Position numbers and translations under genes: made by a program
DNA from: an uncultured delta proteobacterium
GTDB lineage: Bacteria > Myxococcota_A > Polyangia > Polyangiales > Polyangiaceae
Direction: 5' to 3'
NCBI GenBank assembly: GCA_963827955.1
Contig: CAWHDJ010000018.1
Coordinates: 989,297-1,053,296, forward strand
DNA: 64,000 bases
Shown: positions 11,282 through 43,040 of the stretch, in pieces
Numbering within the stretch: the stretch's first letter is position 1
Layout of the letters: the number at the start of each line of letters is the position of its first letter
Notes under the pieces: generated by a model
Databases searched by the model: none
Seen by the model: the letters and a program-made list of their open reading frames with translations, nothing else
What the model was told of the DNA's origin: nothing

Positions 11282-12404
11282 TTACGCCTTGCCCTTCTTC
11301 GCGAGCATCGCGAGCAGCTCCTCGACGATCGGGCGGCTCTCGGCGATCCATTGCACCAGGCTGCGCCGCATCTCACGCGTACCGCCCTTCTCGAGCCGCA
11401 CGCGGGTGTCTTCGACGTCGAGCGACATTTCGCCCGAATTCACGGGCCACGGCGCGGCCGGCAGCTTGGCGAGGAGTGCGCGAGCACGTCCTACGGCGTC
11501 CTTCGACGTCGCCGCCGCGGGCGTCGCCTTGTTGCTGGCCATGGACGCGTACCGCAGGCCCAGGGCCAGGGCGAGGCGGCCATTGAAGCTCAGGTCGCCG
11601 CTCGGGATGCCGGCTTGGTCGAGCATCTGCTCCGCAGACTGCTCGCTGCCCCGCCGCTTCCAGAGCTCCTCCGCGTCGTCCCGCGCCTTCCACCGTTTGC
11701 GAAACCCCGCAGCCCATTCTTCGTGCGTGCGAACGGACCGTGCCGCGTTCGCTTGGATGGCCGGCACCGCCTCGCCGGCGCGGTGCAGCCGCACCCGCAG
11801 CGCCCCCGCGAGACGAGCGCGGAGGTTGAGCCCTTCGCGCGCCACGCCGGCCTCGTCGAGGATCGCGTGCAGCCGCTCTTCCAGCACCGGGCACTGCCCG
11901 TCGACCTCGGGCTCGTCGGGGTAGTCTGGCGCCGGCATCGCCGGCATCGCCGGCGTCGCTGGCGTCGCCGGGGGCGCCGCGCTCTCTTTGGCTGCATGCA
12001 GCAGCGCCGAGAGCGGCGACGGAGCGGCCCCACCGACGGCCACATCCGGCGCCGGCGCCGCGGCGCGCTCAAGGGGGAGCGCCGCGGACGAGAGGACGGT
12101 CCCGCCTTCACCCCGCGGGCAGAGAGCAGCCTCGGCCGGCGTGAGGCTCTCGCTCTCCGGCCGGAGCTCGATCTCGTGGGCGTCATCGAGCGAGAGGAGC
12201 GCGCCGTGGATCGCGTCGAGGTCGAAGCCCTTGGCGATCAGCGCGCGCACCACGTCCGGGATCCGCACGACGAGCGAACGGGGATCCGCCTGGCGCCGCA
12301 GCTCGGCGAGGACGGGGAGCCGGGTTGGGCGTGCCCAGGTCACGGCCGGAGGCCCTCGTGGTCGAGATCCACGGCGTTCGCGATGAGAGGGCGGCGGCGG
12401 TTCA
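11282..12404 (-). CDS. hypothetical protein with an internal 'SPLSALLHAAKESAAP' motif. Apparent frame discontinuity near its 5' end; a likely ATG overlaps the stop of the giant gene.
   Basis: Protein-like from 'VTWARPTRLPVLAELRRQ...'. An alternative ATG-initiated frame ('MNRRRPLIANAVDLDHEGLRP') overlaps the TGA of the upstream gene. Confidence 0.45.
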
Positions 12405-21400: not shown

Positions 21401-23242
21401 GCCCGGGAAGGTCTTGCTCGTGGGGTCGAGCTGGATATCCCCCGCCGGCGTGTGCAGCGTCAGCATCCCGTACGCGACGTGCTCCACTGAGAACCCCGGC
21501 AGGCGGCCCGCTGCGCGCGCGAAATCCGAGTCGACGTAGATGCGCTCGCCATCGCGGTCGAAGGTCCAGTCGTCTCGGTGCGGCGGGACGTCATGCCCCC
21601 AGCGCGTGGGCTTGTGCTCGTTGTAGGTCTTGCGGAGCTTGAACGCCGTCGTAAGGCGCTCCAGCAATTCGGAGACCGCCTCGACGTCGCAGCCGAGCAT
21701 GGTGGCGATCTCTTCCAGCGTGCGGTACTCGCCGAGCGTCGCGGCAAGCACGCCCTCCTCGGTGGCGCAGGGAGTCTTCGCCTCCAACCCCTGGGAGAGC
21801 GCCTCGGCCCGATGCTCGACGACCGCTGCCGCATCCTCGGCGGTCGGGATGCCCGCCGGCGCCGCCGGTGCCGGCTCGGCGGCGAGTGCCGTTTGGGCGT
21901 CGGCAAGAAGCTCCGAGAGCCCGGAGGCCGGCGCTCTGTCCTGCTGCCGGGACGAAGGCACGGGAGCGGCTTCGGCGTTGCCCTCGGCGCGGCTCCAGAC
22001 GCCGTACTGCTCTTGGAGATCCACGCGCCCGCCGCGCGCGACACCGAACATGCGAAAGGCCCCCACCTCGCCTTGGAGCTTCGCGGATGTCGTGCGCAGG
22101 AGCTCAGACCGTTGCCTTGCAGGGGCCTGTTCGCGCTCGATGCGGTTCAGCAGACGGCCCAGCGCTGCGCCCAACGTCTTGCCGTCGCTGCCGAGCGCCC
22201 ACGCCGCTGCCACCTTCTCGCGGAGGAAGCGCAAGAGGTGCTCGCGGCGCTGCGCGTCGATTGCCTCGGCCTCGGCCAGGAGCCCGGAGGCGCGCTCGAA
22301 ACGCTCGACGGGAGGGGCGTCGCCGTCCTCGATGTCCTGCGCGAGCTTCTCGAGCGCGACCGCGGCGGCCCGGCCCTCGCTGAGCTGGTCGGCCCGTTGC
22401 CGCTTCGCTCGCAGGTCGGCAATGGCAGCCGCGGGGGATGCCGTGGCAGCGTCCACTACACGCGCGGCGTCCTCCTCGTCCTCACGTGATGCGGGCCGCG
22501 GCGGCGGGATCCGGACCGCGAACCCGGGCGACACCGCCGGGGGGGAGGCGCCTGCGGCAGACGGCTCGATCACGGAGCGCCGCACCCTTGCGGTTGCGCC
22601 CTCGACCGCCAGCCTCTTCCATGCGTCCGCCGCAGCATCGGCACGCTGTGCGATGCTTACGGCGCGGGGCAGGTCGACGATGGTGCGCTCGGCGCCTCCT
22701 CGGTCTCCGCCCATCGCCTGGATCGCGCCGATGACGCCCTCCCGGTCGGGCCCGACGTCGACGAGCACCACGTCCCAGAGGGTGCTCGGGGGCGCCTCGG
22801 GGATGAGCGGCCTCGACGGCAGGTAGTACGCGGTGAGGCCCCTGCCAATCGGCATGGCGACGATGAGCTTCTCGCGGACGAGATCCGAGAGGAGGTTCAC
22901 CGCGGAGGGGTCGTCGAGCGCCGCGAGGATCGCGCGCTGGCTCGCTGGGCCCTCGGAGAGCATGGAGAGGATCCGCTCACGGACCTCCCGCACCAGGGCC
23001 GCTTCGCGCTCGCGTTCTGCCGCGCGTGTGGCTTCCGTCGAGGCGTAGCGGGCGGCGCGCTCTGCATCGGTCTCCAGGCGCCACCAGCCCGGGTGGGTGA
23101 ACGGCGTGCGGTCGCCATCGTCATGCTCGATGACGACGTAGCCGTCCTTGCTCCGCACCTCGACGACCACGCCGGGCGGGCTACGCGGGGTCACGGTGCT
23201 GTTGTCGACGACGCGGTCGCCCACCTCGAAGCGCGGCAACAT
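12402..23242 (-). CDS. giant multidomain protein (~3,600 aa). Contains an N6-adenine-type DNA methyltransferase module, an SNF2/DExx-box helicase and a long repeat-containing C-terminal region. It is DarB-like. One frame discontinuity in a G-run at about 17405-17415 joins ORF 17219..23242 to ORF 12402..17927.
   Basis: 'LVISNPPYGVRGE' is the NPPY motif IV. 'AFDVGVGKTYTG' is a Walker A. 'LLIVDEAQNYKN' is motif II. 'QRNGRAWRQGNQ' is the helicase motif VI (SNF2). The C-terminus holds (GEAEx)n tandem repeats and an internal duplication ('...GDIEFDRMRGVEFPGQSGVSHWIYGKGLAATMEALGMGDL' / '...GRVIFDPEGSAKRVGMTYTVRGQAHVVNALLDAMGLGDL'). Confidence 0.75.
13941..14098. repeat. 15-nt tandem repeat encoding (A/T)E(A/T)GE units within the giant gene
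   Basis: Read directly: 'gcctcgccggtctccgcc' units are repeated about 10 times. Confidence 0.7.
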
Positions 23243-26200
23243 GCCGATCTCGGACGCACGGATGGGCGAAGCTCGGCCGTGCGGGACACGAACTCGGCCG
23301 GGCGCTCCACGAGCACCTGGCTCTCGAACTGGCGCGCGATGTCGAGGACCTTATCGGCGAGAGCCTCGTCACCGCGCAGGTGCCGGATCGCGGCTCCGTA
23401 CACCACGCGGGTCTTGATGATGTTGTCCCACCAGTGGTCCTGTGCGGCCCCCTCGATCGCGGCTTCGACCTCCCTTGCCCGCGCCTCGTCTCCGAGCAGG
23501 CGGGTGAGGGCCTCCAGCATCGGGCTCGGCACGGCCGAGCGGAGCGTGTACCAGCGCTCGTCATCCTCGACGCGCATGTCGAGGATGCCTTCCTCCCGCA
23601 TCTGCCGAAGCAGGCCGACGACGCGACGACTCTCCTCGCCGGAAGCAGTCACGCCGGCGACCTCGCGCGTGATCACGCGAAGAGGGGCCCCGCCTCGGCG
23701 CTCGTCGAGGTACGCCACGATCTTCGCGCGGGCGGCGTCATCGTCATCCTTGCCCTCGGGCGGCCGAGGGGACGAGGACGCCGCGGCCTCGGCGGTGGCA
23801 AGGAGCTGCGAGAGGGGGCTGCTGGTGGGTGCCGGTGCGCTCGGCGGGCTCGGCTCGGGCGGCCGAGGGGAGGGCATCCGGAAGCCCGTTGCTGCCGGTG
23901 CGCTCGGCGGGCTCGGCTCGGGCGGCCGAGGGGAAGGCATCCGGAAGCCCGCTGCCGGGGCCGCGGGCGCGGTGGCAGGCCCCGGCTCGTCGGCGCGGAG
24001 CTCGAGCGACGCGAGCCTCTGCGCCACGCCGCCGGGCAGCGTGGACCACTCCGTGATGTCCTCCGGCGTGTAGCCCAGAAGCTCGAGCCGCCAGGCGAAT
24101 GCCGGATCCTCGCCCGCGCGGCGGAGCGCTTCGGCGATGTCGCGGTAGTTCGGCGACATGTCGGCCTCTGCCACGGAGCGCGTTTGGGCCCAGCGCTCGC
24201 GGGTGGTGGGCCCGCGCTCTCCGTGCTCGATCCCCCAGGCCGCGCGCTCCAAGATCGAAGCGGTTCCGCGGCCCTCGCCCGCTGCCCTTGTCCGCAGGCG
24301 ATCCGCGGTCGTCATGACGTGGTCGAGCCCGACGCCGCTCTTTTGGCCGCGAGCCTCATCTGCGATCTGTTGCAGCACGACGTGTGCTCGCGCGTCCCCG
24401 GCGAACTCGCCCACGCTGTCCAGGTACCGCGCGAGCGCGATCTTCAGCCGCACCTCTCCCGGCGCCGGCGTCGCGGGCGCCGCCGGCCGCGCCCACCGCT
24501 CCACCGTGCGGAGGAGAGCGTCGACCGTCGGAAAGTCCTCGCGCATGTTCGACGAGATCGAGTGCGCCGCGCCGGGGTCCTTGCCCCCGCCCCAGTGCAC
24601 CGCTTGCGCGTGGAACCAGAGCCGCCCGAGACCCTGCTTCTCGGCCCAGGGCGTCCCCAGGTGCGGCTTCACCGTCCATCCCCGGTCCTTCAGGCCGTTG
24701 AGAAGCATCGCCTTGACGGTGCGGAAGGCGGGGGGCTTCGGGGCGCGGGGGGGAGGCGAGGGGCGCGCCTCGGTCGCCTCCGCTCCGCGAGGAGTGGGCG
24801 CGACGGCGAGCCAACGTGCGAGGGTTGCAGGCTGGGGCGTCCCCTCCGCGATCCAGCGCGTCATCACTTGCGCGAGTGGTTCGCCGATCGTGAGCCCTGC
24901 CGCGGCGAGCGCAGCCCGGTGGTGCAGCATCGCCGCGTGCGCCATCTGCCAGCGCGCGGTCTCCTGGCTCTGCTTGTCGGTCTCGTCGAGGAGCCTCGCC
25001 TTGTGCGCAAGCGCCTCGGGGCCCGGGTCTCGAAGCGCCTCACGAATGGCGGCCCACTTCGGGTGCTTCGGTGCGCGCGATGGACCAGGCTCGGCCGTCG
25101 GCGTAGACGACGCTGCCGCCTGAGCGGCTGCAAGACGCTGCGAGAGCACGGAGGTCGGCCCCGCGCCGTGCCCGGACGAGGGGACCGCCGGTTCCGCCGT
25201 CGCCATCGGCGTCGAACCCGCCACGCGGGAGGCGATGCTGTAGAAGTTGACCCCCGATCGCGGATCGTAGCGGGTGTCGACCACCTTCTCCTTGGCGAGC
25301 TTGACCAACTCGTCGCCGACGCGTCGCCGGTCCTCCGTCGCCGTGCCGCCAACGTCGTCGTGGACCATCCGCAGCGTCGCCTCCCCCACGCGGGAGAGGT
25401 ACGTGAGGATCGCGATCCGGCTCTTCCCGGCCTCGCCCTGAAGCTCCTCGGTGGGGACCTTGTTGGGCGCGAGCGGCGCAGCGGATTCCTGTGCTTGGAG
25501 CGCGGCATCCTCGCCGAACTCGTCGACGATGGCGGCGACAACCCGGTCGAGCGCCTCGTCCTGGGCGCGCTTCGTGTGGGCGTCCACCGGCCGCTTCAGA
25601 GCCCTCACGGCGCCGAAGAGAAAGCTCCGCCAGTCGCTAGGGTGCTGCCGCGCGAGGAGCCCCTTGAGGGTCGCGCTCTGTGCCACCCCTGCGAAGCGCT
25701 CGGCAGCGGCGCCCGTCTCGAAGGTGAGTACGGGGCTCCCGTTCTCGCGCTGGACGACGAAGCGATATCCCTCGGGGGTGGTTGTCACCAGGCGGGCCAC
25801 CCGAAGGTTCCCCACGGGGACCGACTCTGCCGTGCCGCCCGTGGGGACCTCCGCCCGCATCGCTGCCCCTACGATGCTGGAGACTTCGTCCTCGCTGACG
25901 CCTGCCTCTCGCGCGGCGTCGAACGCCTGCTCGGCCCGCGCCGACTCTTCTCGCGTGCTCTCGGGGAAATGCTTCGCGCGCACCGCCACGAGCGCTTCCC
26001 CAAGCCGCACCCGGGCTTCCGCCTTTCTGGCGTCCGCCCCCACCACGGGGAAGCGGGCGGCATCGAGACGGTCCGCCACCTCGCCGAACGAGCTTCCCCG
26101 CTCCTCCAGGTAGAAGACCCTCGTCTGGCGAACGTCAATCGAGAAGGTGATGCCGTAGGGCTTGGACTCCCCGGGGGCGTTCGAATGGAAGGCGACGAAA

Positions 26201-28419
26201 TTCGCGTCGGCGTTCTCGGGGAAGTAGTAGAAGGTCGCCTCAAGCGACGTCTCGCCCGCGTGGCTCTTGTGGAATACGTCCGTCTTCGGCAGCGTCCACG
26301 GCACGCCGGTCTGGAGGATGAGCTTCTCGTGGAGCGCTCGCAGAAACGCGTCGGACTCCGCGGTGAACGCGTCCGCCCGGGCCCGGGATCCTCCAGCTTC
26401 TCGAGGCGCGCGCTCCGACCTGCGAACGCTACGAGCAGGCGTAGGCGACTCCGCCGGGAGCAGCCTCGACTGCGGCCCGTGCGCCTCCAGCGGCGTCTCC
26501 ACGCGCCCAGCGCCCGCCAGGTGCTTGACCTGGCGCAGCTCCTCCGCCGTGATGAGGAGTGCATGCGTTTCGAGCTGTTTGATGACCGCGGCGCGCAGCT
26601 CCGTCGCGGGCAACGTCATCTTGGCGGCCTCGCCGGCGATGGTGCGGAGCCGGTATGCGGCGATCTTCGCGCCCTCACGCTCTGCGGCCACGGCCTGCCG
26701 CTCGAGGTACGCGACGATCGCCCGGCGTTCCTCGGCCGCTGCCTGGGCGACGCCAAGCATTTGCGAGAGGGCCGAAGGAGCACGTGCCGCCGCGGCCTCA
26801 CGCTCCGAGGCCGTGCGCTGTTGAGCGAGCGCCGTGAGGGATCCCGGAGGCGGACGCCGCGAGGACGGGGGGGCGCCTGGCGTGGTCGGAGTGGGCGGGG
26901 GGGCCTTCCGGACCGGCGGAAGGTCCAGCTTGCCAAGCCGGATGAGCGGGTCCTTCCCCAACCGCGCGGCTTCGAGGAAGCGGTCTACGTCGAGCGACGC
27001 GCGGAAAGCAGCGAGCACGCCCGCGCGCTCGTTGGAAGGATAGCCGGGCGCGGCGTGGATCTCGTACCCTTTGCCAAGCATGCCCGTCCAGCGGATGGGA
27101 CTCTCTTCGCCTTCGATCTGGCCAAAGGCACCGCTGAAGTGGAAGCTGTAGCCCGGCCAGGGTGCGCTCTGCTTGTAATGCCGGCCCATGTATCGCCAGA
27201 ACTCCGTGTCGACGTAGAGCTTGCCGCTTTCCTCGTGCACGGGGACGTGGACGAACACTGCTTCCGCGACGGGCGTTTCTTGCGCGACACGATAGAGTTT
27301 CAGGCCGTTCGCGGTCGTGTGAGCCGTGAGGTGCCCAATCGCGACCAGCGTGTGCACCCACTCGCGCGCCAGCTTGCGGCGCGCCTTGTTGGCCTCGCCC
27401 ATCATGCCGCCGACCTTCAGCACGATCTGCTCGATGCTGGCGTCGCCGACTCCGGTGACGTACGCGACGATCTCTTTTTCCTCGGCCTCGGGGACGGGCG
27501 GGCCGAGCTCGGCGAGCGCCGTCCACCGGAACGGCGAGTCGATCGCTCCCGGCACGATGCGAGCCTTGTCGGCGAGCGCCAGGCGCTTCAACGCGGCTTG
27601 GATGGACTCGGCATCCCACCCGACGCGCACCTCGATCTCCTCGACCGTTCGAGGAGTGCCAGCAATCTCACCGAGGACCTGGCGCGCGATACCCTCCTCC
27701 GGCGCAACCATCCGGAACGGCGCCGTGCCCGGCGCCGCGGCGGACGTGCGACTCGCCTTCGCGTACTCGAGCACCACGTCCCGGAGCGTGAGCCCAGCCG
27801 ATTCCGGGTCGTAGAGCTTGGCCTCAGCGTAGACGACAACGAGGTTCTCGCGCTCGAAAAGCGCGCCGGGCGGTACCTCGGGCGCCGCGGCGTCGACCGC
27901 CGCCTGGAACGCACGCACGGCCCGCTCCGGTTGGATGATGGTCGCCCCGCCGCGACCGTCGTTCTCGAACGAACCGACGTTTTCCCCGTTCCAGAAGATG
28001 CGGCCAGCCCAGCGAGGTGTTTCCTCGCCCTCGCCGCGCTCGTCAAAGACCAGCCGGAGGCCACCGCCGATGTCGACCTCGGGCTTCGCGAGAGCGGCCG
28101 TGGGTGCGGGCGTGGCTCGGATGGCGTCGTAAGCGGCCCGCATGACCGCGCGCGTGACGCGAGCTTGGAGCGCGGGGTCCTCGACGAATTTGGCCATCAA
28201 CGGCGCGCCGTCGCGCTCCACGCGCGCCGTCGCCATCTCGATAAGCCTGCGCGGAAGGACCAAGCTGAAGTTGTCGTAGCTGTTCGCCTTGGCCCACCCG
28301 ATAACGGCCGGATCGCGCTGCGCTTCCTCCGTCAAGAGCTCGACGAGCCCGCGCTCCTCGGCGTCGCGGAGCAGCGCCGCGAGTCGGCCGCCAGGCGGGG
28401 ATTGAGGGGGAGGCGCCAT
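23191..28419 (-). CDS. large hypothetical protein (1,742 aa). No recognisable catalytic motif. Contains a 57-nt tandem duplication.
   Basis: Continuous protein-like ORF. The ATG at 28419 lies immediately 3' of copy 1 of the conserved upstream element. The gene overlaps the start of the giant gene by about 50 nt. Confidence 0.6.
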   Translation of the reverse strand: MAPPPQSPPGGRLAALLRDAEERGLVELLTEEAQRDPAVIGWAKANSYDNFSLVLPRRLIEMATARVERDGAPLMAKFVEDPALQARVTRAVMRAAYDAIRATPAPTAALAKPEVDIGGGLRLVFDERGEGEETPRWAGRIFWNGENVGSFENDGRGGATIIQPERAVRAFQAAVDAAAPEVPPGALFERENLVVVYAEAKLYDPESAGLTLRDVVLEYAKASRTSAAAPGTAPFRMVAPEEGIARQVLGEIAGTPRTVEEIEVRVGWDAESIQAALKRLALADKARIVPGAIDSPFRWTALAELGPPVPEAEEKEIVAYVTGVGDASIEQIVLKVGGMMGEANKARRKLAREWVHTLVAIGHLTAHTTANGLKLYRVAQETPVAEAVFVHVPVHEESGKLYVDTEFWRYMGRHYKQSAPWPGYSFHFSGAFGQIEGEESPIRWTGMLGKGYEIHAAPGYPSNERAGVLAAFRASLDVDRFLEAARLGKDPLIRLGKLDLPPVRKAPPPTPTTPGAPPSSRRPPPGSLTALAQQRTASEREAAAARAPSALSQMLGVAQAAAEERRAIVAYLERQAVAAEREGAKIAAYRLRTIAGEAAKMTLPATELRAAVIKQLETHALLITAEELRQVKHLAGAGRVETPLEAHGPQSRLLPAESPTPARSVRRSERAPREAGGSRARADAFTAESDAFLRALHEKLILQTGVPWTLPKTDVFHKSHAGETSLEATFYYFPENADANFVAFHSNAPGESKPYGITFSIDVRQTRVFYLEERGSSFGEVADRLDAARFPVVGADARKAEARVRLGEALVAVRAKHFPESTREESARAEQAFDAAREAGVSEDEVSSIVGAAMRAEVPTGGTAESVPVGNLRVARLVTTTPEGYRFVVQRENGSPVLTFETGAAAERFAGVAQSATLKGLLARQHPSDWRSFLFGAVRALKRPVDAHTKRAQDEALDRVVAAIVDEFGEDAALQAQESAAPLAPNKVPTEELQGEAGKSRIAILTYLSRVGEATLRMVHDDVGGTATEDRRRVGDELVKLAKEKVVDTRYDPRSGVNFYSIASRVAGSTPMATAEPAVPSSGHGAGPTSVLSQRLAAAQAAASSTPTAEPGPSRAPKHPKWAAIREALRDPGPEALAHKARLLDETDKQSQETARWQMAHAAMLHHRAALAAAGLTIGEPLAQVMTRWIAEGTPQPATLARWLAVAPTPRGAEATEARPSPPPRAPKPPAFRTVKAMLLNGLKDRGWTVKPHLGTPWAEKQGLGRLWFHAQAVHWGGGKDPGAAHSISSNMREDFPTVDALLRTVERWARPAAPATPAPGEVRLKIALARYLDSVGEFAGDARAHVVLQQIADEARGQKSGVGLDHVMTTADRLRTRAAGEGRGTASILERAAWGIEHGERGPTTRERWAQTRSVAEADMSPNYRDIAEALRRAGEDPAFAWRLELLGYTPEDITEWSTLPGGVAQRLASLELRADEPGPATAPAAPAAGFRMPSPRPPEPSPPSAPAATGFRMPSPRPPEPSPPSAPAPTSSPLSQLLATAEAAASSSPRPPEGKDDDDAARAKIVAYLDERRGGAPLRVITREVAGVTASGEESRRVVGLLRQMREEGILDMRVEDDERWYTLRSAVPSPMLEALTRLLGDEARAREVEAAIEGAAQDHWWDNIIKTRVVYGAAIRHLRGDEALADKVLDIARQFESQVLVERPAEFVSRTAELRPSVRPRSACCRASRWATASSTTAP
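23827..23945. repeat. 57-nt direct tandem duplication encoding 'GFRMPSPRPPEPSPPSAPA' twice
   Basis: Read directly, inside CDS 23191..28419. Confidence 0.65.
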
Positions 28420-28535
28420 GGCTTCCCCGAGCGTGCGCCGCCGCTCGATGCGCGCGCAAGGCGCTTACCCGCCTATGGATTTCACTTATCAGCCAGGATC
28501 CGTGGAAGTTCCTAGACCCGTTGTGGGATGATCCC
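28420..28535 (-). promoter_or_regulatory. conserved ~115-bp upstream element, copy 1. AT-rich invariant core TGATAAGTGAAATCCATAG in the gene orientation. Ends at the ATG of the 1,742-aa gene.
   Basis: Aligns over its full length with copies at 33713..33828 and 36254..36367. It is the only AT-rich 19-mer in this 70% GC region. Confidence 0.6.
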
Positions 28536-29855
28536 AGGTTCGAGCTTGAGGATGCCGGTCCACCTCCGACGCGCGGCGATGGCGGCGGTCTTGCGGGTCG
28601 CTTCCACGCTGCCCACCGGGATCCAGTCCTCGCCCCGGAGCTGGCTCACCTGGAAGACGTGCGCCGCCGCGCTCCCCTTGCTGGAAGCGGGGCTCGTATC
28701 CTCGAGCAGGGGCAGTCGGCGCTTCGCCGGAACTGGGCCGCTCGCATCCACGAACTGGGGCGGACCACCTACCGGGCCGGTGTACTGCTCCTCGGGAGGC
28801 TCCATCGCGAGGTAGCGGTCCAGCATCGCCGGGTCCCGCCGCACGGCACGGATGAACTCCGCCATGGCCCCCGGCTTCGGGATGGCGCCGCGGAAGCCCT
28901 TCACGGTCCTGCCCCAGAGCCCTTCGATGCCTCGCAGACCCGCCTGGGCGGCGTCCTCGATCGCGATGATTCGGTCGGCAAGCACCGGATGGTCGCGCAC
29001 GAGGCGCGCGATTTCCCAGGGCTTGCTTGCCGGACAGAAATAGCATGCCGACTTGGGCGGGATTGGGATGCCTGCTGCGCGCAGCTCCGCCTTGATGCGA
29101 GCGCGATCCCACTGCCACTCCCTGAGCGGATAAACGTATTCGTAGTGGTCATCGTTCCGCAATTGGTGAGCGCGGCGGGAGTCGCGATAACCGTAGTCGT
29201 AGCCGATGGCTTTCACCACCTTGCCGCCACGTGCCCAGAGCGCCTGCGCGCGCGGGTCCTTCGCGAGCCACGCCTCTTGCGGCCGGATCTTCCACTCGGA
29301 ACTACACGACTTCTTACCGAACGCCTGACCCGGGAGCGACTCGTATGCGAGGCACTTCTCGCCGAGGGTCGAGTACGGCATGCCCGTGACCTTCGACACG
29401 CTGGGGTTGCTGCGCACCATCACGAACTCCGGGAAACCGATGCTCCGCAGCCAGCGTTGCCGCTCCTCGCGGAATGCAATGGTCTCCGGCCATTCGTCGC
29501 CGGTTTCGGCGTGCAGGATAACGTCGGGCCTGACGCCCAAGCGGTGCAGGCCCTCCAGCATCCCCGTCGAGTCGACGCCCATGCCGTCCGCCACCACGAG
29601 CAGGGGCCGGGCCCAGGGCGGCAGTGCGATGAACCGGCGTAGCGTCATGGGGGGCTGCGAGCCGCCCGCTGGCGCCTGGCCGGTGCGCGCGCGCAACCTC
29701 GTCGACGGGGTCGCGCGCGCCCGGCGCTTCCTCGACGGCGCCTTCGCCGGGGCATGCGCCTCGGCGGCCTCGCTCGCTGCTCGGAGCTGCGCTGCGAGTC
29801 CGCCCTGCGGGGCTGCTGCCGCCCGCAGCATCCCGGCAAGCAGGCTCGACGCCAT
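28512..29855 (-). CDS. PAPS-reductase family-like protein, paralog C (degenerate PP-loop). N-terminus has the 'LLAGMLRAAAA...LAAQLRAAS' motif.
   Basis: 'LLVVADGMGVDSTGML' is PP-loop-like. 'GYRDSRRAHQ' fits the R-x-x-(E)S-x-x-R motif. 'ACYFCP' is the C-terminal Cys pair. Confidence 0.5.
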   Translation of the reverse strand: MASSLLAGMLRAAAAPQGGLAAQLRAASEAAEAHAPAKAPSRKRRARATPSTRLRARTGQAPAGGSQPPMTLRRFIALPPWARPLLVVADGMGVDSTGMLEGLHRLGVRPDVILHAETGDEWPETIAFREERQRWLRSIGFPEFVMVRSNPSVSKVTGMPYSTLGEKCLAYESLPGQAFGKKSCSSEWKIRPQEAWLAKDPRAQALWARGGKVVKAIGYDYGYRDSRRAHQLRNDDHYEYVYPLREWQWDRARIKAELRAAGIPIPPKSACYFCPASKPWEIARLVRDHPVLADRIIAIEDAAQAGLRGIEGLWGRTVKGFRGAIPKPGAMAEFIRAVRRDPAMLDRYLAMEPPEEQYTGPVGGPPQFVDASGPVPAKRRLPLLEDTSPASSKGSAAAHVFQVSQLRGEDWIPVGSVEATRKTAAIAARRRWTGILKLEPGIIPQRV

Positions 29856-29891
29856 CGCTGATCTCTCCCAGCCGAGGGCCGCGCGCCCGCG

Positions 29892-31598
29892 TCAGGCAGC
29901 GGCCTGCGAGGCAATCATGCGGAGATCGTCGGGGTGGTGCTTGGCCCAGTCCTCGAAACCCATATAGGGATCGGTGAGGTTGTTTTCCCGCATCCAGGCC
30001 GTCACCGGCTTGCCTGCGCCCGCGCGCCAGAAACGCTGAATCTCCGCCAGCTCCGCCTCGCGCTGCTCCGGGGTCTGGTTCGGGTTGGCCGCCAGGTGTC
30101 CGGCGCGAAGCTGGGCGAAGACAACGTCGTCGGGGCCCATGCTCCGCACGGTGCGCGGACCCTCGTGGGCGGCGGGCGGCGCCGCGGCCCTGGTCGCGCT
30201 GGCCGGAGCCGGCTCCGCCGCGGCCGTCGCGGGCCCCCTCACGCTCGGCGGCTTGGCCGTCCGCTTCGAGGGGGGCTTCGCCGCGGGCTTCTTTGCCGCC
30301 GGCTTCGTCGCCGCCGGCTTCTTCGCGGCGGGCTTCTTCGCGGCCGGGGGCTTCTTCGCGGCGGGCTTCTTCGCCGCCGGCTTCTTCGCGGCGGGCTTCT
30401 TCGCCGCCGGCTTCTTCGCGGCGGGCTTCTTCGCGGCGGGCTTCTTCGCCGCCGGTGCCCCGGGCTTCTTGGACGCCTTGGCATGCTTCTCGGCCAGCGC
30501 CGTGAGACGGGCGCGATCGTCGCCGGAGACCGAGATCACGTCCACCGCCATCGCGCCGGACTTCGCCGCCTCGAGCTCGGTGCGCTTCTCGGCCGCGACT
30601 TGGGTCGCGCGCTCCTTGGTGAACGGGCCGTACACCGTCAGCACGTTGCCATCCGATTTGACCTCGACGAACGAGCGCGCCTTCGACGCCTTCGAGGTCT
30701 TCGCCGCTTTGTTCGCCGTCCTCGCCGTCTTCTTCGCGGCCTTCCGCGCAGCCGCGGTGTTGGACTTCGGGGGCCTGCCACCCTTGCCGGCGGCGTAGAC
30801 GCCCCTGTGCCCCGGCGCACCGTCGTTGTCGAACCGCGCCTTGGCCTCGGCCAGGGCTGCCTTGACTGCCGCCAGCGGCGTGCCGGGCGCGCGCTTGTCG
30901 AGGATGCCCTGGATCCTCTCCCTCGACACGCTTGCCGGATGGCGGATCAGGACTTCCTCGCCCGAGCCTCCAACCTGGAACGAGCCCGAGACGTAGGTGC
31001 TCCTGCTGGCCGGCTTGCGCGTGCGCCGGCCAGAGGGCGCGCCCGCCGATCGCGGTGCAGCCGCTGACCCGCCGGCGGGGACCCCCTTGGCGACGTGGCG
31101 TCTGTGGATGTGCTCGAGGAACTCCGCGGTCGCGTTGGCGGACAGCATGCTCGTCTCCGTCTCGTACGAGCTCGGCCCCGAGGCGTGGCCCGTCCACACC
31201 ACTTCGTTGCCCGCAATGGCCCTCGCCTTCCTCCCGCTCTCGTGCACCATGAGCTCGTCGCCGTTTTCCATCCTGACGAGGAAGGAGTCGCGGTGGCCGC
31301 TCGAGCTACTCCCGCCGTTCGTGGCCGCCGAGGCGGGGTGAGCGGCGCGGCGATGGGCTGCCGCTGGGCGCGAGGGGTGTGCGCCCGCATGGCGGCTCGT
31401 GCGGGTCCCGGAGGGGGCACCGCCCGTCGTGGTGCGATGACCGCTCGGCGGAGTCTTCTCCACGCTCCCCGACGTGGTGCCGACACGATGAACCGTGGCG
31501 GTGTGCTTGCCCTCGGCCAGGTCCACGTTGACCGTCACGGCGAAGCTGTTCTCGTTGCGGTTCCGCGTGGTGATCTGCTTGTGCTTGGTGATCGACAT
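29892..31598 (-). CDS. hypothetical protein with a long (PAAKK)n Lys/Ala/Pro repeat, histone H1-like
   Basis: 568-aa ORF. The ATG at 31598 (MSITKHKQITTR...) is protein-like. The central region is 'KKPAAKKPAAKKPAAKK...' for about 25 repeats. Confidence 0.6.
   Translation of the reverse strand: MSITKHKQITTRNRNENSFAVTVNVDLAEGKHTATVHRVGTTSGSVEKTPPSGHRTTTGGAPSGTRTSRHAGAHPSRPAAAHRRAAHPASAATNGGSSSSGHRDSFLVRMENGDELMVHESGRKARAIAGNEVVWTGHASGPSSYETETSMLSANATAEFLEHIHRRHVAKGVPAGGSAAAPRSAGAPSGRRTRKPASRSTYVSGSFQVGGSGEEVLIRHPASVSRERIQGILDKRAPGTPLAAVKAALAEAKARFDNDGAPGHRGVYAAGKGGRPPKSNTAAARKAAKKTARTANKAAKTSKASKARSFVEVKSDGNVLTVYGPFTKERATQVAAEKRTELEAAKSGAMAVDVISVSGDDRARLTALAEKHAKASKKPGAPAAKKPAAKKPAAKKPAAKKPAAKKPAAKKPAAKKPPAAKKPAAKKPAATKPAAKKPAAKPPSKRTAKPPSVRGPATAAAEPAPASATRAAAPPAAHEGPRTVRSMGPDDVVFAQLRAGHLAANPNQTPEQREAELAEIQRFWRAGAGKPVTAWMRENNLTDPYMGFEDWAKHHPDDLRMIASQAAA
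30275..30455. repeat. 15-nt tandem repeat (gcgggcttcttcgcc)n encoding the AAKKP repeats on the minus strand
   Basis: Read directly from the sequence. Confidence 0.7.
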
Positions 31599-31625
31599 GG
31601 TGGTTACCTCGGGCGCGTAGCGGTC

Positions 31626-33630
31626 TCATGCGAAGACTCGGTAAAGGCTGTAGAGCAGCGCGGCGGACACCAGAGGGACCGCCGGCGAGCCGCCCGACGT
31701 CGTCTCCTCGGGCTCCGCGCCGCGAGGCCCGTGCGGTTCTGCGGGTTCGGCGAGCGTGACCTCGAGATCCGCGCCGTAGAAGTAGCGGAGGATGCCGTTC
31801 CACCGCCAACCCCGAGTGGCGAGCGCGTCGGCCCCGTTCTGCGAGAGGCAGCCGCGGTTACGCCTGTTCCGCGGGTCGGCGACCGGGCTCGGGCAGGGGT
31901 GGACGGCGCTGCCCACCAGCCCCTCGTTGTAGGTCACGAATCGCTCGGTGGGGTACTTCGCGCTGACGATGCCTCGCAAGGCCCCGGGAGCCCAGACCGC
32001 GCCCGCGACATGGCTCCCGAGGATGAGCGCCCCCTTCCAGAGGGCGACGCCGCCGCGCGTCTCGGCGGCGGCACGGACCGCCAACGGCCTTGGGGGCGAG
32101 AGGGCGACCTGGAAGCGCTGGCTGTTCGGGATGGGGTGCGCCGCCGTGCCGAGCGTGGGATCCGCGGCGAGCGCCTGCTGGACGTAGGTGCGGGCCGCGA
32201 TCGCCACCGCCTTGAGCGCATCGAGGCGCCGCGAAGGGCTCTCGCCGGCTACGACGAGGGCGACGTAGTCTTCGAGGTCCAGCTCGCCGAGGCCGGTGAC
32301 GACCGCGCGCGCACGGAGCTGCACGTGCTCCAGCGCGGGCTCCTGCGCGCCGCTCGACGGGTGCGCGCCGCCGGACGGGTACTCCAGCCAACCGAGGAAC
32401 GCGGGTTCGTCGACGCGGTGGGTGCGCTCGGCCCAGGCGTCGCCGCTGTTGGCCTCGATCGTCCGGAGGGTTCCGGCGCCGTCGGGCGGCGCGCTCACGC
32501 GCCCGATGTGCCCGCTCCCGCCATGCACGGGATTCCTCCCCGTTGCGTCTCCACACGGCGCCGTCGCCGACCTTCGCGCGATAGCCGTCGCCGCGCGGAT
32601 GGAATCTCCCGCTGCGCACGACGTCGGCGACGCGCCCGGTGTAGGCGTGCGGAAGTCGCTCGCCGGGCCGGAGCGCCTGGCGCCCGGCCCAACAGAACCC
32701 CCAGGCGCACCAGTCGCTGCCCTTGGCCCCCCCGTACTTGGCGATCCCCGGCCCCCAGTTGCTGCCCGCGGGCTCCTCATGGACGCCGGCGTCGAGCTCG
32801 CCGCGCGCGACCGCGAGCGCGCGCTCGCCGAGCGTCGTGTCCGCATGGCCCGAGGCCGGTGCTTCGGCGCGCGGTGCGCCAGGCGTCTGCGCTGACCCAC
32901 GGGGCTGCGCGCCCGGTGGAACGCGAGGCACCGCGCGCGGCGGTGCATCGAGGGCGAGCAGATCCCGCAGCTCCTCGCACGCCTCGGGGAGGACGTGCTG
33001 GGCCTGGTAGATGTGCCCGGCCTTGTCGTGGCCCCCGGCCGAGTAGATCGCGAGGTGGCCGCGCCAACCGTCGCCCGTTCCGCCCGGCGCCTCGCGATGC
33101 ACCCGGATCTCGTGGTCGGGCGGCTCCGGGAGGAGGTCGAGACCCGTGGCCAGTTCCGCCATCGCGCGCGTCGAGGTGTAGGCCGGCTCCGTCTTGATGT
33201 AGCTGTGCGTGATGACCGTCGTGACCTTGCCGGCGCGCGCATCGCGCACGATCCCCTTCACGTAGTCCCGTTGCCATGCGTGCGGGGGATAGTCCCCGTG
33301 CATGCCGTCGCAGAGGACGAGCGCGAACGCGGGCGCTCCCGCGAGTCGCAGTGCGCGAACGCGCTGGCAGCCGGCGGAGAACCCGATGAGCGCCGCGAGC
33401 CAGAGCGGGCGCCCCACCTGCGCTTCGGCCCACGCGAGGATCTCCTGCCATGTCTCGGTGGCGTAGGGGTTGAGGCCGACGACGCAGGGACGCGGGCCGA
33501 GCGCCGCGAGCACCGCCCCAGGAACACCGCTCGGTGTTTCCGTGTCGCGCTGGCCGCGCTTGTCAGGCATCGGCGACGCGAAGCACACGAGCGCGCCCCC
33601 GGTCCCGCGCTGAACGAGCGCGAGGGCCAT
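31626..33630 (-). pseudogene. multidomain cell-wall hydrolase: N-terminal domain of unknown function, CHAP-like cysteine peptidase, then a SpoIID/LytB domain. Frame discontinuity at about 32520-32530.
   Basis: 'GSDWCAWGFCWA' and 'GHIGRVSAPPDGAGTLRTIEANSGD' match the CHAP Cys and His regions. 'DALKAVAIAARTY...GCLSQNGA...RYFYGADL' is the SpoIID signature. The two halves lie in different frames. Confidence 0.65.
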
Positions 33631-33712
33631 CACGCCACCCGCTCGGCGACGACGTTGACCGCGGACGCGAGCGATGCTCCGCTCGCACCGCTCGCTGTGG
33701 GCGAGAAAGGCA

Positions 33713-33828
33713 CGGCTTCCCCGAGCCTGCGCCGCGGTCCGTGGTGCTCGCAAGCGCCTTACCGTCTATGGATTTCACTTATCAGCGCGGAGCCGTGGAA
33801 GATCCAACGGCGGCCGTGGGATGTTCCT
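33713..33828 (-). promoter_or_regulatory. conserved ~115-bp upstream element, copy 2, about 85 nt 5' of the hydrolase ATG
   Basis: Aligned by eye with copies 1 and 3. Confidence 0.6.
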
Positions 33829-33861
33829 CGGTGCGCCGCAGCAGGTCCGCGCCGAGCGTGG

Positions 33862-36252
33862 TCATCCGGACACAGAAACAGGTGCGTGTGACACGCCGAG
33901 CCGCTCCGCCTCGTCCGCCTCGATCGGTCCGCACTCCACAACGTCGTAGACACGCCCGCAGCCCACGCAGGCGAGCTGGCGGCTCACGATCGACGCGCGC
34001 GCCCCTCCCATCCGGCGCTCCAGCTCCGCATCGGTCTCCCCGTTCAGCCGGCCGGTGAGGACGTCGCAGCCGCACGACGCGCAGACCGGACCGCCGGCAC
34101 CGAAGCGGAAGGCGAGCCGGCCACGCTCCAGCGCCTCGGGATCCAGGTACGCCAGCTCCTCCGCCTGGATCGCGAAGTGATACGCCCGCGCCTCCGCCTT
34201 GGAGATGCCGCTCACCCGCGCCGCGCCCCTCCGGGCCGCGTCGGTCACCCTCACCGGAGGGATGATCCTACGCGGTGGCGGGGCGGGAAGGGCGCTCCAG
34301 TAGCGCTTGACGACCCTCAGCGCCTCCTCGGCGCGCTCCTCGTCACCCAGCAGCGCCCGGGTGATGGCGGAGCGGACCCGCTTCGTCAGCACGAGGTCCT
34401 CCAGCCAGTGCTCGTCGGCGCTCCGCATGGCCTCGGCGACTGCGAACGAATCCTTGCCGAGCGCCGGGTAGATGGCGTCCAGGAGCGCGCGCGTCGGCGT
34501 CGGCGCCACGGCTCGACCCTCCGCCCGCGCGTACTCGGCCTCCCGGAGAGGGGCGCGCGCACGGAGTAGGTTGTCGTAGCGCTTGCGGAGGTCCTTCGTC
34601 GCGCGAGGGATCCTGCCCAGGCGCTGAGCGGCAAGGGTGGCGGCGACCAGCTCGTCGAAGAGCGCCCGCACCTCGGGCGTGTTGAGGTCCCACGCGAAGA
34701 CGTCGGCGTCGTGGAGCGTCGAGAACGCCCGAACCGCTACCCCGCTCGGCACATGGCTGACCTGGAAGGGAAAGCCCGCGGCTTCCTGCCGCTCGAGGTT
34801 CTGGTGGACGACGATGTCGCCGTGCCGCGCGAACACGTCCACGTCGACCGACCGCATCACGTCGGTTCGCCAAATCGGTGCCTTACCGACCACGGGCGCT
34901 GTCTCGGGGCGCTCCTCGGCGTGGCCTCCCTCGACGTGCAGACCGCGGTCGATGGCGTTCGCAGCGACGAAGAGCTCCTCGCTGACCCGCCCCTCCGCCT
35001 CCGCGGCGACGTTCCGCAGATGGACTGTGGCAGCGACCCGGGCATCATGCGCCGTCTGGCCGGGCACGTCGGGCGTCCGCTCGATCGCCACGCCCTCTTT
35101 CCGCAGGGCATCCGCGATCTTCGTCTCGACGCTCACAACTCGATCCGGCGGCCACAACGAGGCGAAGGTCGACGCGCGTCGAATCAGGAATTGGGCGATC
35201 TGCTGCTTCTCGACCTGAGACACGGGAGGCGCTGGCCGGGGCTGCGGAGGCCCCGCGCCGTACTTCGCCACCATCCGCTTGCGGTCCCACTCCTCGGCGC
35301 GCGCGACGAAGGCGGGAAGGTCAGTCGCCGGGACGCGGATGCCGCCGATGCCCAGGCGACGCTCCGCGCCGTTGCCGTCCGGCTTTCCCCACACGTCGAT
35401 GTCGCGCGGGTTCATCTCGTCGACCGTGAGGCGCGTGATCCTGCCCTCGAACTCCTGCGTCCCGTGACGGATCACCTTGCCGCGGCGCTCCCGTGTGTCC
35501 TCGCTCCAGCGCACCCGCGTGCCGACGTCGGGCCACACCATGTACCCGCCGACGCTCCCGAGGTAGCTGAACTCCTCCCGCAGTTGCGCCCTCGCCGCGG
35601 CCTCACGCGTCGGGTTCGGGACCTCCCCTCGCGCACGCGCCTGCTCGTCGAGCCAGTGGAGGCGCTGGCCGATGTTCATTCGTTCGCCGCGCTTTTCGCC
35701 GAACGGCATCGTGAGCGTCAGGCCCGCGTTCCTCCGCACTTCGCTGTCGAGCCAGTGCAGCGGCTCTGTATAGTCCTTGCCGGCGAGGATGATGACGTCG
35801 GCGGCCTCATGGCCGAAGTCGCGAAGCAACTGCTTGCGGACGCGCTCCCCCCAGTCCTTCCGCGCTGCCGGGCTGAGGGCCCTCATGGAGCGGTTGTAGG
35901 TTGCGATCTTCTCCGTGGTCGGGATGACCCCGTGCTTCGCGGAGAGGATGCGGATGTGGTCCTCCCTGGTGACGGCGCGCGCGTAGGCGAGGCTCTTCTC
36001 GAAGAGCACCGACGCGGAGTAAAGCTCGGCGGCGGGGATCCGCTTCCCGTGCGTTTTGACCTTCGACGCGCTGCACGCGATGAGGACGATGAGAGGACGG
36101 CGCCGCTCGGCCTTGGCGGCGTCGGTCGCTGCTCGGAGCAGCGCGGCGAGCGCACCGGCGGAGCCCCTCGCCGCTTGGAGGAGCGCAGCGAGCCCACCGG
36201 CGGGGCCCGGTGCGGCCGCTGCCCGAAGTCTCGCAGCGGGGTCCGTGAGCAT
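33862..36252 (-). CDS. hypothetical 797-aa protein. N-terminal domain resembles YaaA/DUF328 (peroxide-stress/DNA-binding family). C-terminal Zn-ribbon. N-terminus carries three 'LAALLRAA' repeats.
   Basis: 'PLIVLIACSASKVKTHG...ILSAKHGVIPTTEKIATYNRSM' parallels the YaaA pattern 'LILISPAKTL...MLSGLYGVLRPLD..PYRLEM' (inference). 'CASCGCDV...CVGCGRVYD' is a Zn ribbon. The ATG at 36252 abuts copy 3 of the upstream element. Confidence 0.55.
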   Translation of the reverse strand: MLTDPAARLRAAAAPGPAGGLAALLQAARGSAGALAALLRAATDAAKAERRRPLIVLIACSASKVKTHGKRIPAAELYSASVLFEKSLAYARAVTREDHIRILSAKHGVIPTTEKIATYNRSMRALSPAARKDWGERVRKQLLRDFGHEAADVIILAGKDYTEPLHWLDSEVRRNAGLTLTMPFGEKRGERMNIGQRLHWLDEQARARGEVPNPTREAAARAQLREEFSYLGSVGGYMVWPDVGTRVRWSEDTRERRGKVIRHGTQEFEGRITRLTVDEMNPRDIDVWGKPDGNGAERRLGIGGIRVPATDLPAFVARAEEWDRKRMVAKYGAGPPQPRPAPPVSQVEKQQIAQFLIRRASTFASLWPPDRVVSVETKIADALRKEGVAIERTPDVPGQTAHDARVAATVHLRNVAAEAEGRVSEELFVAANAIDRGLHVEGGHAEERPETAPVVGKAPIWRTDVMRSVDVDVFARHGDIVVHQNLERQEAAGFPFQVSHVPSGVAVRAFSTLHDADVFAWDLNTPEVRALFDELVAATLAAQRLGRIPRATKDLRKRYDNLLRARAPLREAEYARAEGRAVAPTPTRALLDAIYPALGKDSFAVAEAMRSADEHWLEDLVLTKRVRSAITRALLGDEERAEEALRVVKRYWSALPAPPPRRIIPPVRVTDAARRGAARVSGISKAEARAYHFAIQAEELAYLDPEALERGRLAFRFGAGGPVCASCGCDVLTGRLNGETDAELERRMGGARASIVSRQLACVGCGRVYDVVECGPIEADEAERLGVSHAPVSVSG

Positions 36253-36253
36253 C

Positions 36254-36367
36254 GGGGCTCCCCGAGCCTGCACTGCGGTCCGCGATGCCCGCAAGCGCCT
36301 TGCCGCCCATGGATTTCACTTATCACCGCGCCCCGGTGGAACATCCAGGGCCGGGCCGTGGATGATC
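36254..36367 (-). promoter_or_regulatory. conserved ~115-bp upstream element, copy 3. Ends at the ATG of the 810-aa gene.
   Basis: Aligned by eye with copies 1 and 2. Confidence 0.6.
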
Positions 36368-36582
36368 CGACACGCGCGGCGGCGGCGCATGCCCCGCTGC
36401 GCCTACCCGAGGTTCCTGGGGCGCCTCGGCGGCCTCGCCCGAAGGCTGGCGACCCGCCTCCGGCGTGGACGGCGCCGGTAACCTGCGAGCGCGGGGCTGA
36501 AGAACCGCGAGTGGCTTGCCGACATGGCATCGGCACCCAACCAACTCGCTCTTGACTCGGGTCGGGTAGTCTCAGAAGTCTC

Positions 36583-37452
36583 ATGCCCGGCAAGCGATCG
36601 ACCAGACGCCCTGCGCGCAACTCCACCCGGTACCGAAACTTTGAGGAACTCCGCGCGGCTGTCCACGCCGCTTGCTGGGAAGAGCTGAAACGAAACCTTG
36701 GCCCGGGGCAGTGGGAGGCGGGGCTCGAACAGACGCTCCGTCGCTTCGTCGCCGACCCCGATGAGTGCGAGGTGAAAGCGCGGGACGCCTTCGCAAAGCT
36801 GCGAAGGGTAATGCTCGAGATCGTTACGATCAGCGCGACCTACCACGCCGAATCGAAGCGCGCCCTTGAGGCGTCGACCCCGGAGAAGCCGGTGCTGCCG
36901 CCTGGTGGCGAATACGTCAGGCTCCTGCACGATTTTGTGACGCCCGCGCTCTTGGCGATCCTGAAGCACCACCGGATGGACTTCCCCAACACATGGTTCA
37001 TGTCGCAGGGCGACTACCCCGACGACGCCTCGATCCGCGCGGCGAAGAAGCCTCTGCCTCGGCGGCAATCCAGTTCCAAGCGGTCACGGCTCGTCCTCCA
37101 GCTCGAAGAGTTCAACCTGCTCGGGCTCCCGTCGCGTTCTACGCCCCCGTACTCGTCGCGCTTCTTTTCCGAGCGCGAGTACGCATTGATCAGCCTGATC
37201 CTGGACATCGGCTTGGTCGACGAGCCTGACGTCAAGCGCGCCCTCAACCGCAACGGGGTCACGGTGGCGAAGGTCGTGAGCGACGAGACGGAGCGCATGC
37301 GACTCACTCTCGGCAGGCTCAGCAAGTGGGAGCAGGTTGCGGAACGCGAACGAGCCGCGATCCACGCCGCATGCGAGCGCGAGGGGCGCGATGCGACGCC
37401 CGAGGAGTTGGAAGTAGTGGACCAGCACACACCGCTGCGCGGCCCGGGGTAG
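36583..37452 (+). CDS. hypothetical protein, transcribed divergently from the long minus-strand operon. Codon usage looks atypical for this region.
   Basis: Clean 289-aa ORF with no motif recognised. Contains more A/T-ending codons than its neighbours. Confidence 0.45.
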   Translation: MPGKRSTRRPARNSTRYRNFEELRAAVHAACWEELKRNLGPGQWEAGLEQTLRRFVADPDECEVKARDAFAKLRRVMLEIVTISATYHAESKRALEASTPEKPVLPPGGEYVRLLHDFVTPALLAILKHHRMDFPNTWFMSQGDYPDDASIRAAKKPLPRRQSSSKRSRLVLQLEEFNLLGLPSRSTPPYSSRFFSEREYALISLILDIGLVDEPDVKRALNRNGVTVAKVVSDETERMRLTLGRLSKWEQVAERERAAIHAACEREGRDATPEELEVVDQHTPLRGPG

Positions 37453-37899: not shown

Positions 37900-38066
37900 G
37901 CGACGACGAGGCCCGCGCTGAGTTCGGCGAGCAGCCCAGCGGCGCGAGCATCGCCGCCGGGACGCCGCTCGGCGTGTCGGTGTCGCGCGCGCCGTTCTTG
38001 TCCGGCATAGGCGACGCGAAGCACACGAGCGCGCCGGACGTCCCACGCTGCACCAGCGCGAGAGCC
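37900..38066 (-). pseudogene. 5' fragment (about 55 codons) of a paralog of the cell-wall hydrolase gene
   Basis: Nucleotides 37900-38066 align with 33470-33630. Encoded 'MALALVQRGTSGALVCFASPMPDKNGARDTDTPSGVPAAMLAPLG' matches 'MALALVQRGTGGALVCFASPMPDKRGQRDTETPSGVPGAVLAALG'. The match breaks down downstream. Confidence 0.6.
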
Positions 38067-38237
38067 ATGGAGTCACCGGCCGATCTCGGCATCGGCTTCT
38101 CGGGCGACAGCAACCTGTGGGGGTGGCTCGACCACCGGCTCTTCGCACCAGGGGCTCCCGTACCGCCAGCTCAACCCAGCCACCATGGCGGAGGAAGCCT
38201 CGTCACTGTACCGTCGGGGTTGCCTTCGATGCGCGTG

Positions 38238-41660: not shown

Positions 41661-41717
41661 GCGAATTTCTCCTTCCGCCCGATCAGAGTGGCCCCCGCCG
41701 GACAAGAAGAGCGTGAG

Positions 41718-43040
41718 ATGGCTGAACCGCATCGAGCCGCCGACGACCGCGACCGAGGCATCGCCCAGGGCGCGCTCTTCCGAACCATCCTCCGCTTCGC
41801 GTGGAAGATGCTCAGGTCGTACGGCCTGACCACCGCCGACCGGGACGACGTAGCCCAAGACGTCGCCATCAAGGCGTACCTCCTGCGGGGGAAGTACCGC
41901 GCCGAGCGCGGCAGCGTAACGCAGTGGGTGAGCGGCATCGTCCGCAACGAAGTGCGCGATTTCCGGCGCACGCAGAGCAAGCAGCCGCCCCTCGCCTCGG
42001 GCGAGACGAAGGTCGAGGCCGTCTGCACGGCCCCGACGCCGGAGGAGAGCGTGGGTTCGATCGACCTCGCCGAGCATGTGTTCGAGTTCTTGCCACCGGA
42101 TGAGCGGCGGGTCGTGATCCTTTACGAGATCGAAGGGTATACGTTCCGCGAGATCGCCGAGCGCGAGGGGATCGGCACCGCCACCGCCATCGCCCGCCAC
42201 AACCGAGGCATGGCGCAGCTTCGCCAGGCGGCCGAAGATGAAGAGCGCCGCGGCGTGGTCCCGCTCCCGGCCGCGTTCGTGGTCGCGCTCGGTCAGGACA
42301 CCGACGCGTCCGAGCCGCCCCCCGATCTGGTGGATCGTGCGTGGCGCCGTATGGCGGCGCTCCTCGGCGTCGAGCAGCCCCCGCAGAGCGAGCCACCTGC
42401 GAGCGGCCCCCGCCGGTTGGATCCGAGCCCCGCCCGCGACGTAGATTGCCCGCCGAGCACCCGGCCGCCGAGCCTGCCCAGCGGGCGAGCCGCGTTGTTG
42501 CGCCGGATCGGTCCACTCGTCGGCGTCGTGTTCGCCGGCGTCGTCGGCAGCCGCATGCTCGACTGCGGCGACCGTCCACGGGACGAGCGCTCGCCTGCCG
42601 CGGTCTTGGCGGCACCAACCCCGACCGCGACACCAACCCCAAGCGCGGCGCCAACCCCGAGCCCGCTACGACCCGCTCCGAGTAGCGCCGGACCCCAAGC
42701 CACGGCGGCCACGGGGGCATCGGCAGCTACTACCCGCAGGGCTCCGGAGGCCACGCGCGCCGGGGCCAGGCCGCGGCTCTCGGCGCGCGGAGCGGAGCCC
42801 TCAAGCCTCGACCAGTTCGACGCCGAGCAGGCGCTCGAGGACACGTGGCGAACGGCGCTCGTCTCGGGCAAGCTCGCAGAAGCCTCGTCGGCGCTAACCG
42901 AGCACACTCGGCAGTTCCCCCATGGGAACCTCGCAGCGTCGCGGGAGCACGCCTGGAGCCAGGTTTGCGCGCTCTATCGACGCACGCGGCCGCAGAGCGG
43001 CACGGCCGAGATGGACGCTGTTTGCGCCGGCCGTCGGTAG
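41718..43040 (+). CDS. ECF-type RNA polymerase sigma factor fused to a C-terminal TM/anti-sigma-like extension
   Basis: Region 2 is 'FRTILRFAWKMLRSYGLTTADRDDVAQDVAIKAYL'. Region 4 is 'DERRVVILYEIEGYTFREIAEREGIGTATAIARHNRGMAQL'. The TM segment is 'LLRRIGPLVGVVFAGVVGS'. Confidence 0.7.
   Translation: MAEPHRAADDRDRGIAQGALFRTILRFAWKMLRSYGLTTADRDDVAQDVAIKAYLLRGKYRAERGSVTQWVSGIVRNEVRDFRRTQSKQPPLASGETKVEAVCTAPTPEESVGSIDLAEHVFEFLPPDERRVVILYEIEGYTFREIAEREGIGTATAIARHNRGMAQLRQAAEDEERRGVVPLPAAFVVALGQDTDASEPPPDLVDRAWRRMAALLGVEQPPQSEPPASGPRRLDPSPARDVDCPPSTRPPSLPSGRAALLRRIGPLVGVVFAGVVGSRMLDCGDRPRDERSPAAVLAAPTPTATPTPSAAPTPSPLRPAPSSAGPQATAATGASAATTRRAPEATRAGARPRLSARGAEPSSLDQFDAEQALEDTWRTALVSGKLAEASSALTEHTRQFPHGNLAASREHAWSQVCALYRRTRPQSGTAEMDAVCAGRR

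Follow-up and report, generated by a model that had tools for sequence, protein, structure and literature searches.

The cassette and the genes behind it

The window, that is, the whole 64-kb stretch of DNA analysed, codes for a large serine recombinase, methylases, a DarB-like anti-restriction protein, PAPS-reductase/SspD-like proteins, a DUF6884 protein, and several large orphan proteins without assigned function. An ECF-type sigma gene lies at 41688-43040, and no conjugation genes are seen in the window. The locus belongs to an integrated mobile element that has a serine recombinase as well as DNA-modification or anti-restriction genes, and it contains three copies of a cassette of ~120 bp, all on the same strand (minus, the gene strand):

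17219-23242 and 12402-17927: DarB-like giant methylase/SNF2-helicase pair, after the 1742-aa gene
23191..28419, minus strand: 1742-aa orphan protein, the gene of copy 1
28417..28537, minus strand: cassette copy 1; its 3′ end is the ATG (28417-28419) of the 1742-aa orphan gene
28512-29855: PAPS-reductase-like protein, after the KKPAA-repeat protein
29892-31598: KKPAA-repeat protein, after the SpoIID-like gene
31626..33630, minus strand: SpoIID-domain protein, the gene of copy 2
33711..33830, minus strand: cassette copy 2; its 3′ end is GTG 33711-33713, start of a 27-codon upstream ORF
33862..36252, minus strand: 796-aa DUF6884 protein, related to the YaaA-like DNA-binding fold, the gene of copy 3
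36250..36371, minus strand: cassette copy 3; ends at, or within 5 nt of, the ATG (36250-36252) of the DUF6884 gene
36583..37452, plus strand: 289-aa protein, divergent to copy 3; all-helical, from a small family found in mobile elements

The three aligned copies reported in the initial annotation are found where it placed them. A repeat finder assigns them to a single family of 125 nt, their pairwise identity is 68-77% over ~125 nt, and nhmmer gives E = 1e-28, 6e-33, and 2e-26 for copies 1, 2, and 3, respectively. The AT-rich core had been described as unique, and it is: the exact 17-mer TGATAAGTGAAATCCAT occurs three times in the window, on the minus strand and once per copy, with no other window site within three mismatches and no occurrence in 100 shuffles. 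AT-rich islands are rare in these 64 kb, where only six stretches have six or fewer G+C per 19 nt; copies 1 and 2 account for two of these stretches, and copy 3 falls narrowly outside the cut. The cassette was judged to be neither a REP-like nor a MITE-like repeat.

The 3′ terminus of every window copy is a Shine-Dalgarno sequence followed by ATG or GTG. Three large genes had been claimed downstream, and gene starts do lie behind the copies, but the SpoIID-like gene behind copy 2 is frameshifted near 32540 and shows an internal deletion when compared with its ortholog on L187, a related 77-kb metagenomic contig. In copy 2, the GTG at 33713 opens only the 27-codon ORF, whose TGA overlaps the SpoIID-like ATG (33630), in agreement with the distance of about 85 nt given previously. 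The genes upstream of copies 1 and 2 terminate 0-30 nt before the cassette or within it; in copy 1, the stop TAG (28512-28514) of the PAPS-reductase-like ORF lies between the palindromes described below and overlaps palindrome 2 by the first base of the latter. Internal re-initiation in a long operon, the alternative considered at first, is compatible with these two copies but not with copy 3, which is not operon-internal and lies in the divergent intergenic region facing the plus-strand gene at 36583-37452.

A fragment of the SpoIID-like gene with 95% DNA identity to L187 is found at 37925-38089, and it starts ~20-30 nt downstream of where a cassette would end.

Anatomy and distribution of the cassette

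The order of parts is the same in each window copy: two palindromes, the AT-rich block, GYAAG-N3-CTTGC, a leader with GGGGA, and the start codon.

28526..28534, no strand: palindrome 1, copy 1, GGATCATCC
28504..28512, no strand: palindrome 2, copy 1, GGAACTTCC, 22 bp from palindrome 1
28475..28491, minus strand: invariant AT-rich 17-mer TGATAAGTGAAATCCAT, copy 1
28455..28470, minus strand: GGGTAAG-CGCC-TTGCG, copy 1; candidate -24/-12 (GG-N10-GC) and GTAAG/CTTGC near-palindrome, read by eye
28424..28438, minus strand: leader box GCGCACGCTC and GGGGA Shine-Dalgarno, copy 1
33819..33827, no strand: palindrome 1, copy 2, GGAACATCC
33797..33805, no strand: palindrome 2, copy 2, GGATCTTCC
33768..33784, minus strand: invariant AT-rich 17-mer TGATAAGTGAAATCCAT, copy 2
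33749..33764, minus strand: CGGTAAG-GCGC-TTGCG, copy 2; same candidate -24/-12 block
33718..33732, minus strand: leader box GCGCAGGCTC and GGGGA Shine-Dalgarno, copy 2
36360..36368, no strand: palindrome 1, copy 3, GGATCATCC
36338..36346, no strand: palindrome 2, copy 3, GGATGTTCC
36309..36325, minus strand: invariant AT-rich 17-mer TGATAAGTGAAATCCAT, copy 3
36290..36305, minus strand: CGGCAAG-GCGC-TTGCG, copy 3; candidate -24/-12 block with 3 mismatches to TGGCACG-N4-TTGCW
36259..36273, minus strand: leader box GTGCAGGCTC and GGGGA Shine-Dalgarno, copy 3

The two 9-bp palindromes, GGAWNWTCC, are 22 bp apart in each window copy. This motif is found nine times in the window (2.7 expected), six of these being the pairs within the three copies, and its four occurrences on L187 are all within cassette copies (0.6 expected). 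The start-to-start spacings of the palindromes are 20, 22, 22, 22, 22, and 30 bp, fitting two or three helical turns, and the distance from palindrome 2 to the AT-rich core is constant at 21-22 bp. Such helical phasing points to a DNA-bound protein. In the central 38 nt, identity is 84-89% between window copies and up to 95% when copies from other sources are added; in a comparison of six copies this block is 84-95% identical, versus only 30-81% for the flanks. Within it, the GYAAG-N3-CTTGC block is also readable as GG-N10-GC. The small GCAAG/CTTGC hairpin noticed initially is perfect only in copy 3, as copies 1 and 2 read GTAAG/CTTGC.

Only four further copies are found in public data, three on L187 (at 1943, 2983, and 16415) and one on the soil contig L202 (at 2195). 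All four precede a gene start, in the same orientation relative to the gene. Copy 2 is orthologous to the L187 copy that precedes the SpoIID-like gene. Across the three sources, the genes behind the cassette are unrelated and represent at least five families (orphan, SpoIID-like, DUF6884, DpdA, and an Ala/Pro-rich 629-aa protein). The copy L187a, which heads a gene array beside a divergent gene, is diverged: it lacks the GG and the palindromes and retains the core and TTGC. In L187b, as in copy 1, the upstream half is contained in the coding sequence of the gene before it. Relatives of the mobile element are found on 58-79-kb contigs carrying ParA or DpdA, and small ribbon-helix-helix proteins are conserved across the family; no cassette was found in the ParA-carrying relatives L185 and L186.

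A putative promoter with a ribosome-binding leader

The cassette is best explained, at moderate confidence, as a DNA-level promoter/operator with a ribosome-binding leader, private to one integrated mobile-element lineage; its promoter activity, the sigma factor used, and the binding protein are putative. A shared promoter/operator or a phage-late-type regulatory site had been proposed from the outset, and a promoter/operator shared within a phage- or plasmid-like element gains support from the constant orientation, the ribosome-binding site and start codon, the helical phasing, the unrelated genes downstream in three sources, and the location in an integrated mobile element. As to its type, such a cassette is a real but fairly ordinary regulatory repeat. 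Within the element, it would have been duplicated to precede several transcription units. A dimeric DNA-binding protein would occupy both GGAWNWTCC palindromes on the same face of the helix, and the invariant 36-38-nt centre (TGATAAGTGAAATCCATAG..GG.AAG...CTTGC) would position RNA polymerase and/or an architectural protein. Transcription would start a few nt downstream of CTTGC, and a leader of ~25 nt, with the GCGCAGGCTC box and the GGGGA Shine-Dalgarno, would precede the start codon.

No sigma-70-like promoter is recognisable at the cassette. A sigma-54-type (-24/-12) promoter, (T/C)GG(C/T)AAG-N4-TTGC, with the palindromes as activator sites, is a tentative reading of the sequence. The palindromes would then be centred near -62 and -84, nearer the promoter than activator sites are in most textbook sigma-54 cases, and the AT-rich block might be a bend or UP-like region between them and the promoter. 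GG-N10-GC is retained in six of the seven copies, with TTGC at -12, despite a 1-nt indel in copy 1, and L202 has TGGTAAG-CCGC-TTGCA, matching 10 of 12 consensus positions. In Myxococcus xanthus, the sigma-54 consensus is TGGCACG-N4-TTGC(T/A), the promoters are often operon-internal or within upstream coding sequence, and activator half-sites are tandem, ~25 bp apart (PMC9765219). The cassette resembles these promoters in its GG-N10-GC and TTGC, in its two upstream protein-type sites (~22 bp apart) with an AT-rich stretch between them and the promoter, and in being operon-internal, partly within upstream coding sequence. It differs in the proximity of its upstream sites and in that its match to the consensus does not exceed chance (78 window sites at three or fewer mismatches versus 87 expected, copy 3 being the only cassette copy among the 78). 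Furthermore, the window scan found no activator gene, the activator domain PF00158 being absent from all window ORFs scanned, and the 17-nt invariant block is outside any sigma-54 promoter definition. As this block exceeds the need of any standard promoter element, something else must read it.

Alternative explanations and known systems

A structured 5′ leader or sRNA, also suggested initially, finds no support: an Rfam search of the cassette gives no family match, shuffling leaves the folding energy of the copies practically unchanged (z = -0.04 to -0.55), and the consensus fold reaches only -8 kcal/mol, with no net covariation (the covariation term, proposed as a check, is unfavourable). It is rather unlikely that the cassette, which would then be comparable to SAS/ESAS, acts in the RNA, as a 5′ untranslated region or start-associated sequence controlling translation initiation, mRNA processing, or stability. 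In that case, a protein, a small RNA, or the ribosome would recognise either the AT-rich block or the GYAAG/CUUGC mini-hairpin. Such a role would fit the leader box and Shine-Dalgarno, which, in five copies out of seven, stop 3-5 nt 5′ of the start codon, and the C/U change in GYAAG, which retains pairing with CUUGC via a G-U pair. It would also fit the start codons that open only a short upstream ORF, of 27 codons in copy 2 and of 8-9 codons in L187b and L187c, since a stop that overlaps the main ATG (copy 2) or lies 5 nt before it (L187b) suggests coupling. SAS/ESAS are likewise gene-start repeats with upstream inverted repeats (PMC3203893). However, conservation peaks in the centre and not at the ribosome-binding site, the palindromes are helically phased rather than mutually pairing, and the upstream halves of copy 1 and L187b are within coding sequence.

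One might also consider that the cassette is a set of binding sites for a repressor and has no promoter activity (stoperators or a global operator): a protein of the element would bind the asymmetric 17-mer and/or the palindromes, block read-through, and silence the integrated element. This is unlikely, even if the asymmetric site with constant orientation relative to transcription, its position between genes that run in the same direction and leave almost no gap, the lack of a recognisable sigma-70 promoter, the integrated setting, and the conserved ribbon-helix-helix proteins would all agree with it. Stoperators, cited in PMC3203893, are a precedent. Copy 3 and L187a, however, head gene arrays by a divergent gene and have nothing upstream to stop, and conservation reaches as far as the start codon, across leader and ribosome-binding site, which a pure roadblock would not need. 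There are also only three copies per ~40 kb; Cluster A phages have about 24-30 stoperators each.

A promoter for a non-host polymerase or for a specificity factor encoded by the element is very improbable. The ~19-nt block ending ..CCATAG(G/A)CGG would be of T7 type, or be read by, e.g., the ECF sigma. The length, asymmetry, invariance, AT-rich 5′ part, and ATAG-G junction of this block recall single-subunit polymerase promoters, and both the ECF-type sigma gene and the large orphan proteins are at hand in the window. Yet neither an RNA polymerase domain nor a DxDGD catalytic motif is present in any real window ORF, relatives of the ECF sigma are only 38-52% identical, with none on the cassette-bearing L187, and the candidate -35 motif GGAAC varies among copies. 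The least credible reading is another DNA-transaction site (a recombination-promoting module boundary, a partition site, or an iteron/AT-rich origin). In its favour, the 22-bp-phased repeats beside an AT-rich block resemble iteron origins, relatives encode ParA, and the SpoIID fragment hints at a recombination breakpoint near a cassette. Against it, this breakpoint is a single anecdotal observation, L185 and L186 have ParA without the cassette, and it is hard to see why an origin or centromere should be present three times, each time fused to a ribosome-binding site and start codon in gene orientation.

For the preferred promoter/operator with leader, global operators provide one parallel: the KorA/KorB operators of IncP plasmids, the Ogr-dependent late promoters of P2, and the stoperators of Cluster A are, like the cassette, element-specific sequences that recur at several transcription units and let one protein encoded by the element control all of them together. 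These are short, whereas the conserved unit of the cassette is much longer and includes the leader; there is no sequence similarity, and no cognate regulator has been identified. Frpo/ssi, the single-stranded DNA promoters of conjugative-plasmid leading regions, are also repeated oriented elements before anti-restriction/establishment genes (for the cassette, DarB-like, methylase, and DUF6884). Frpo are long hairpins, in contrast with the cassette, which has neither excess folding energy nor flanking inverted repeats around it and lies in a window without visible conjugation genes.

SAS and ESAS are repeats of unknown function at gene starts in Cluster K mycobacteriophages (PMC3203893). The SAS sequence, GGGATAGGAGCCC, is unrelated to the cassette and has 13 bp and 11-19 copies per genome, versus ~120 bp and three copies; ESAS have one pair of 17-bp arms instead of two short palindromes, and the host phylum is different. 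The similarities are that the repeat is private to one group of mobile elements, has a single orientation, ends a few nt before the starts of unrelated genes, overlaps the ribosome-binding site, can contain the stop codon of the upstream gene, and has upstream inverted repeats, which are held by the authors to bind protein and not to fold as RNA (PMC3203893). In the window, fold comparison of the 289-aa protein (36583-37452) gave no informative match; its gene, divergent to copy 3, is a possible candidate for the partner of the cassette.

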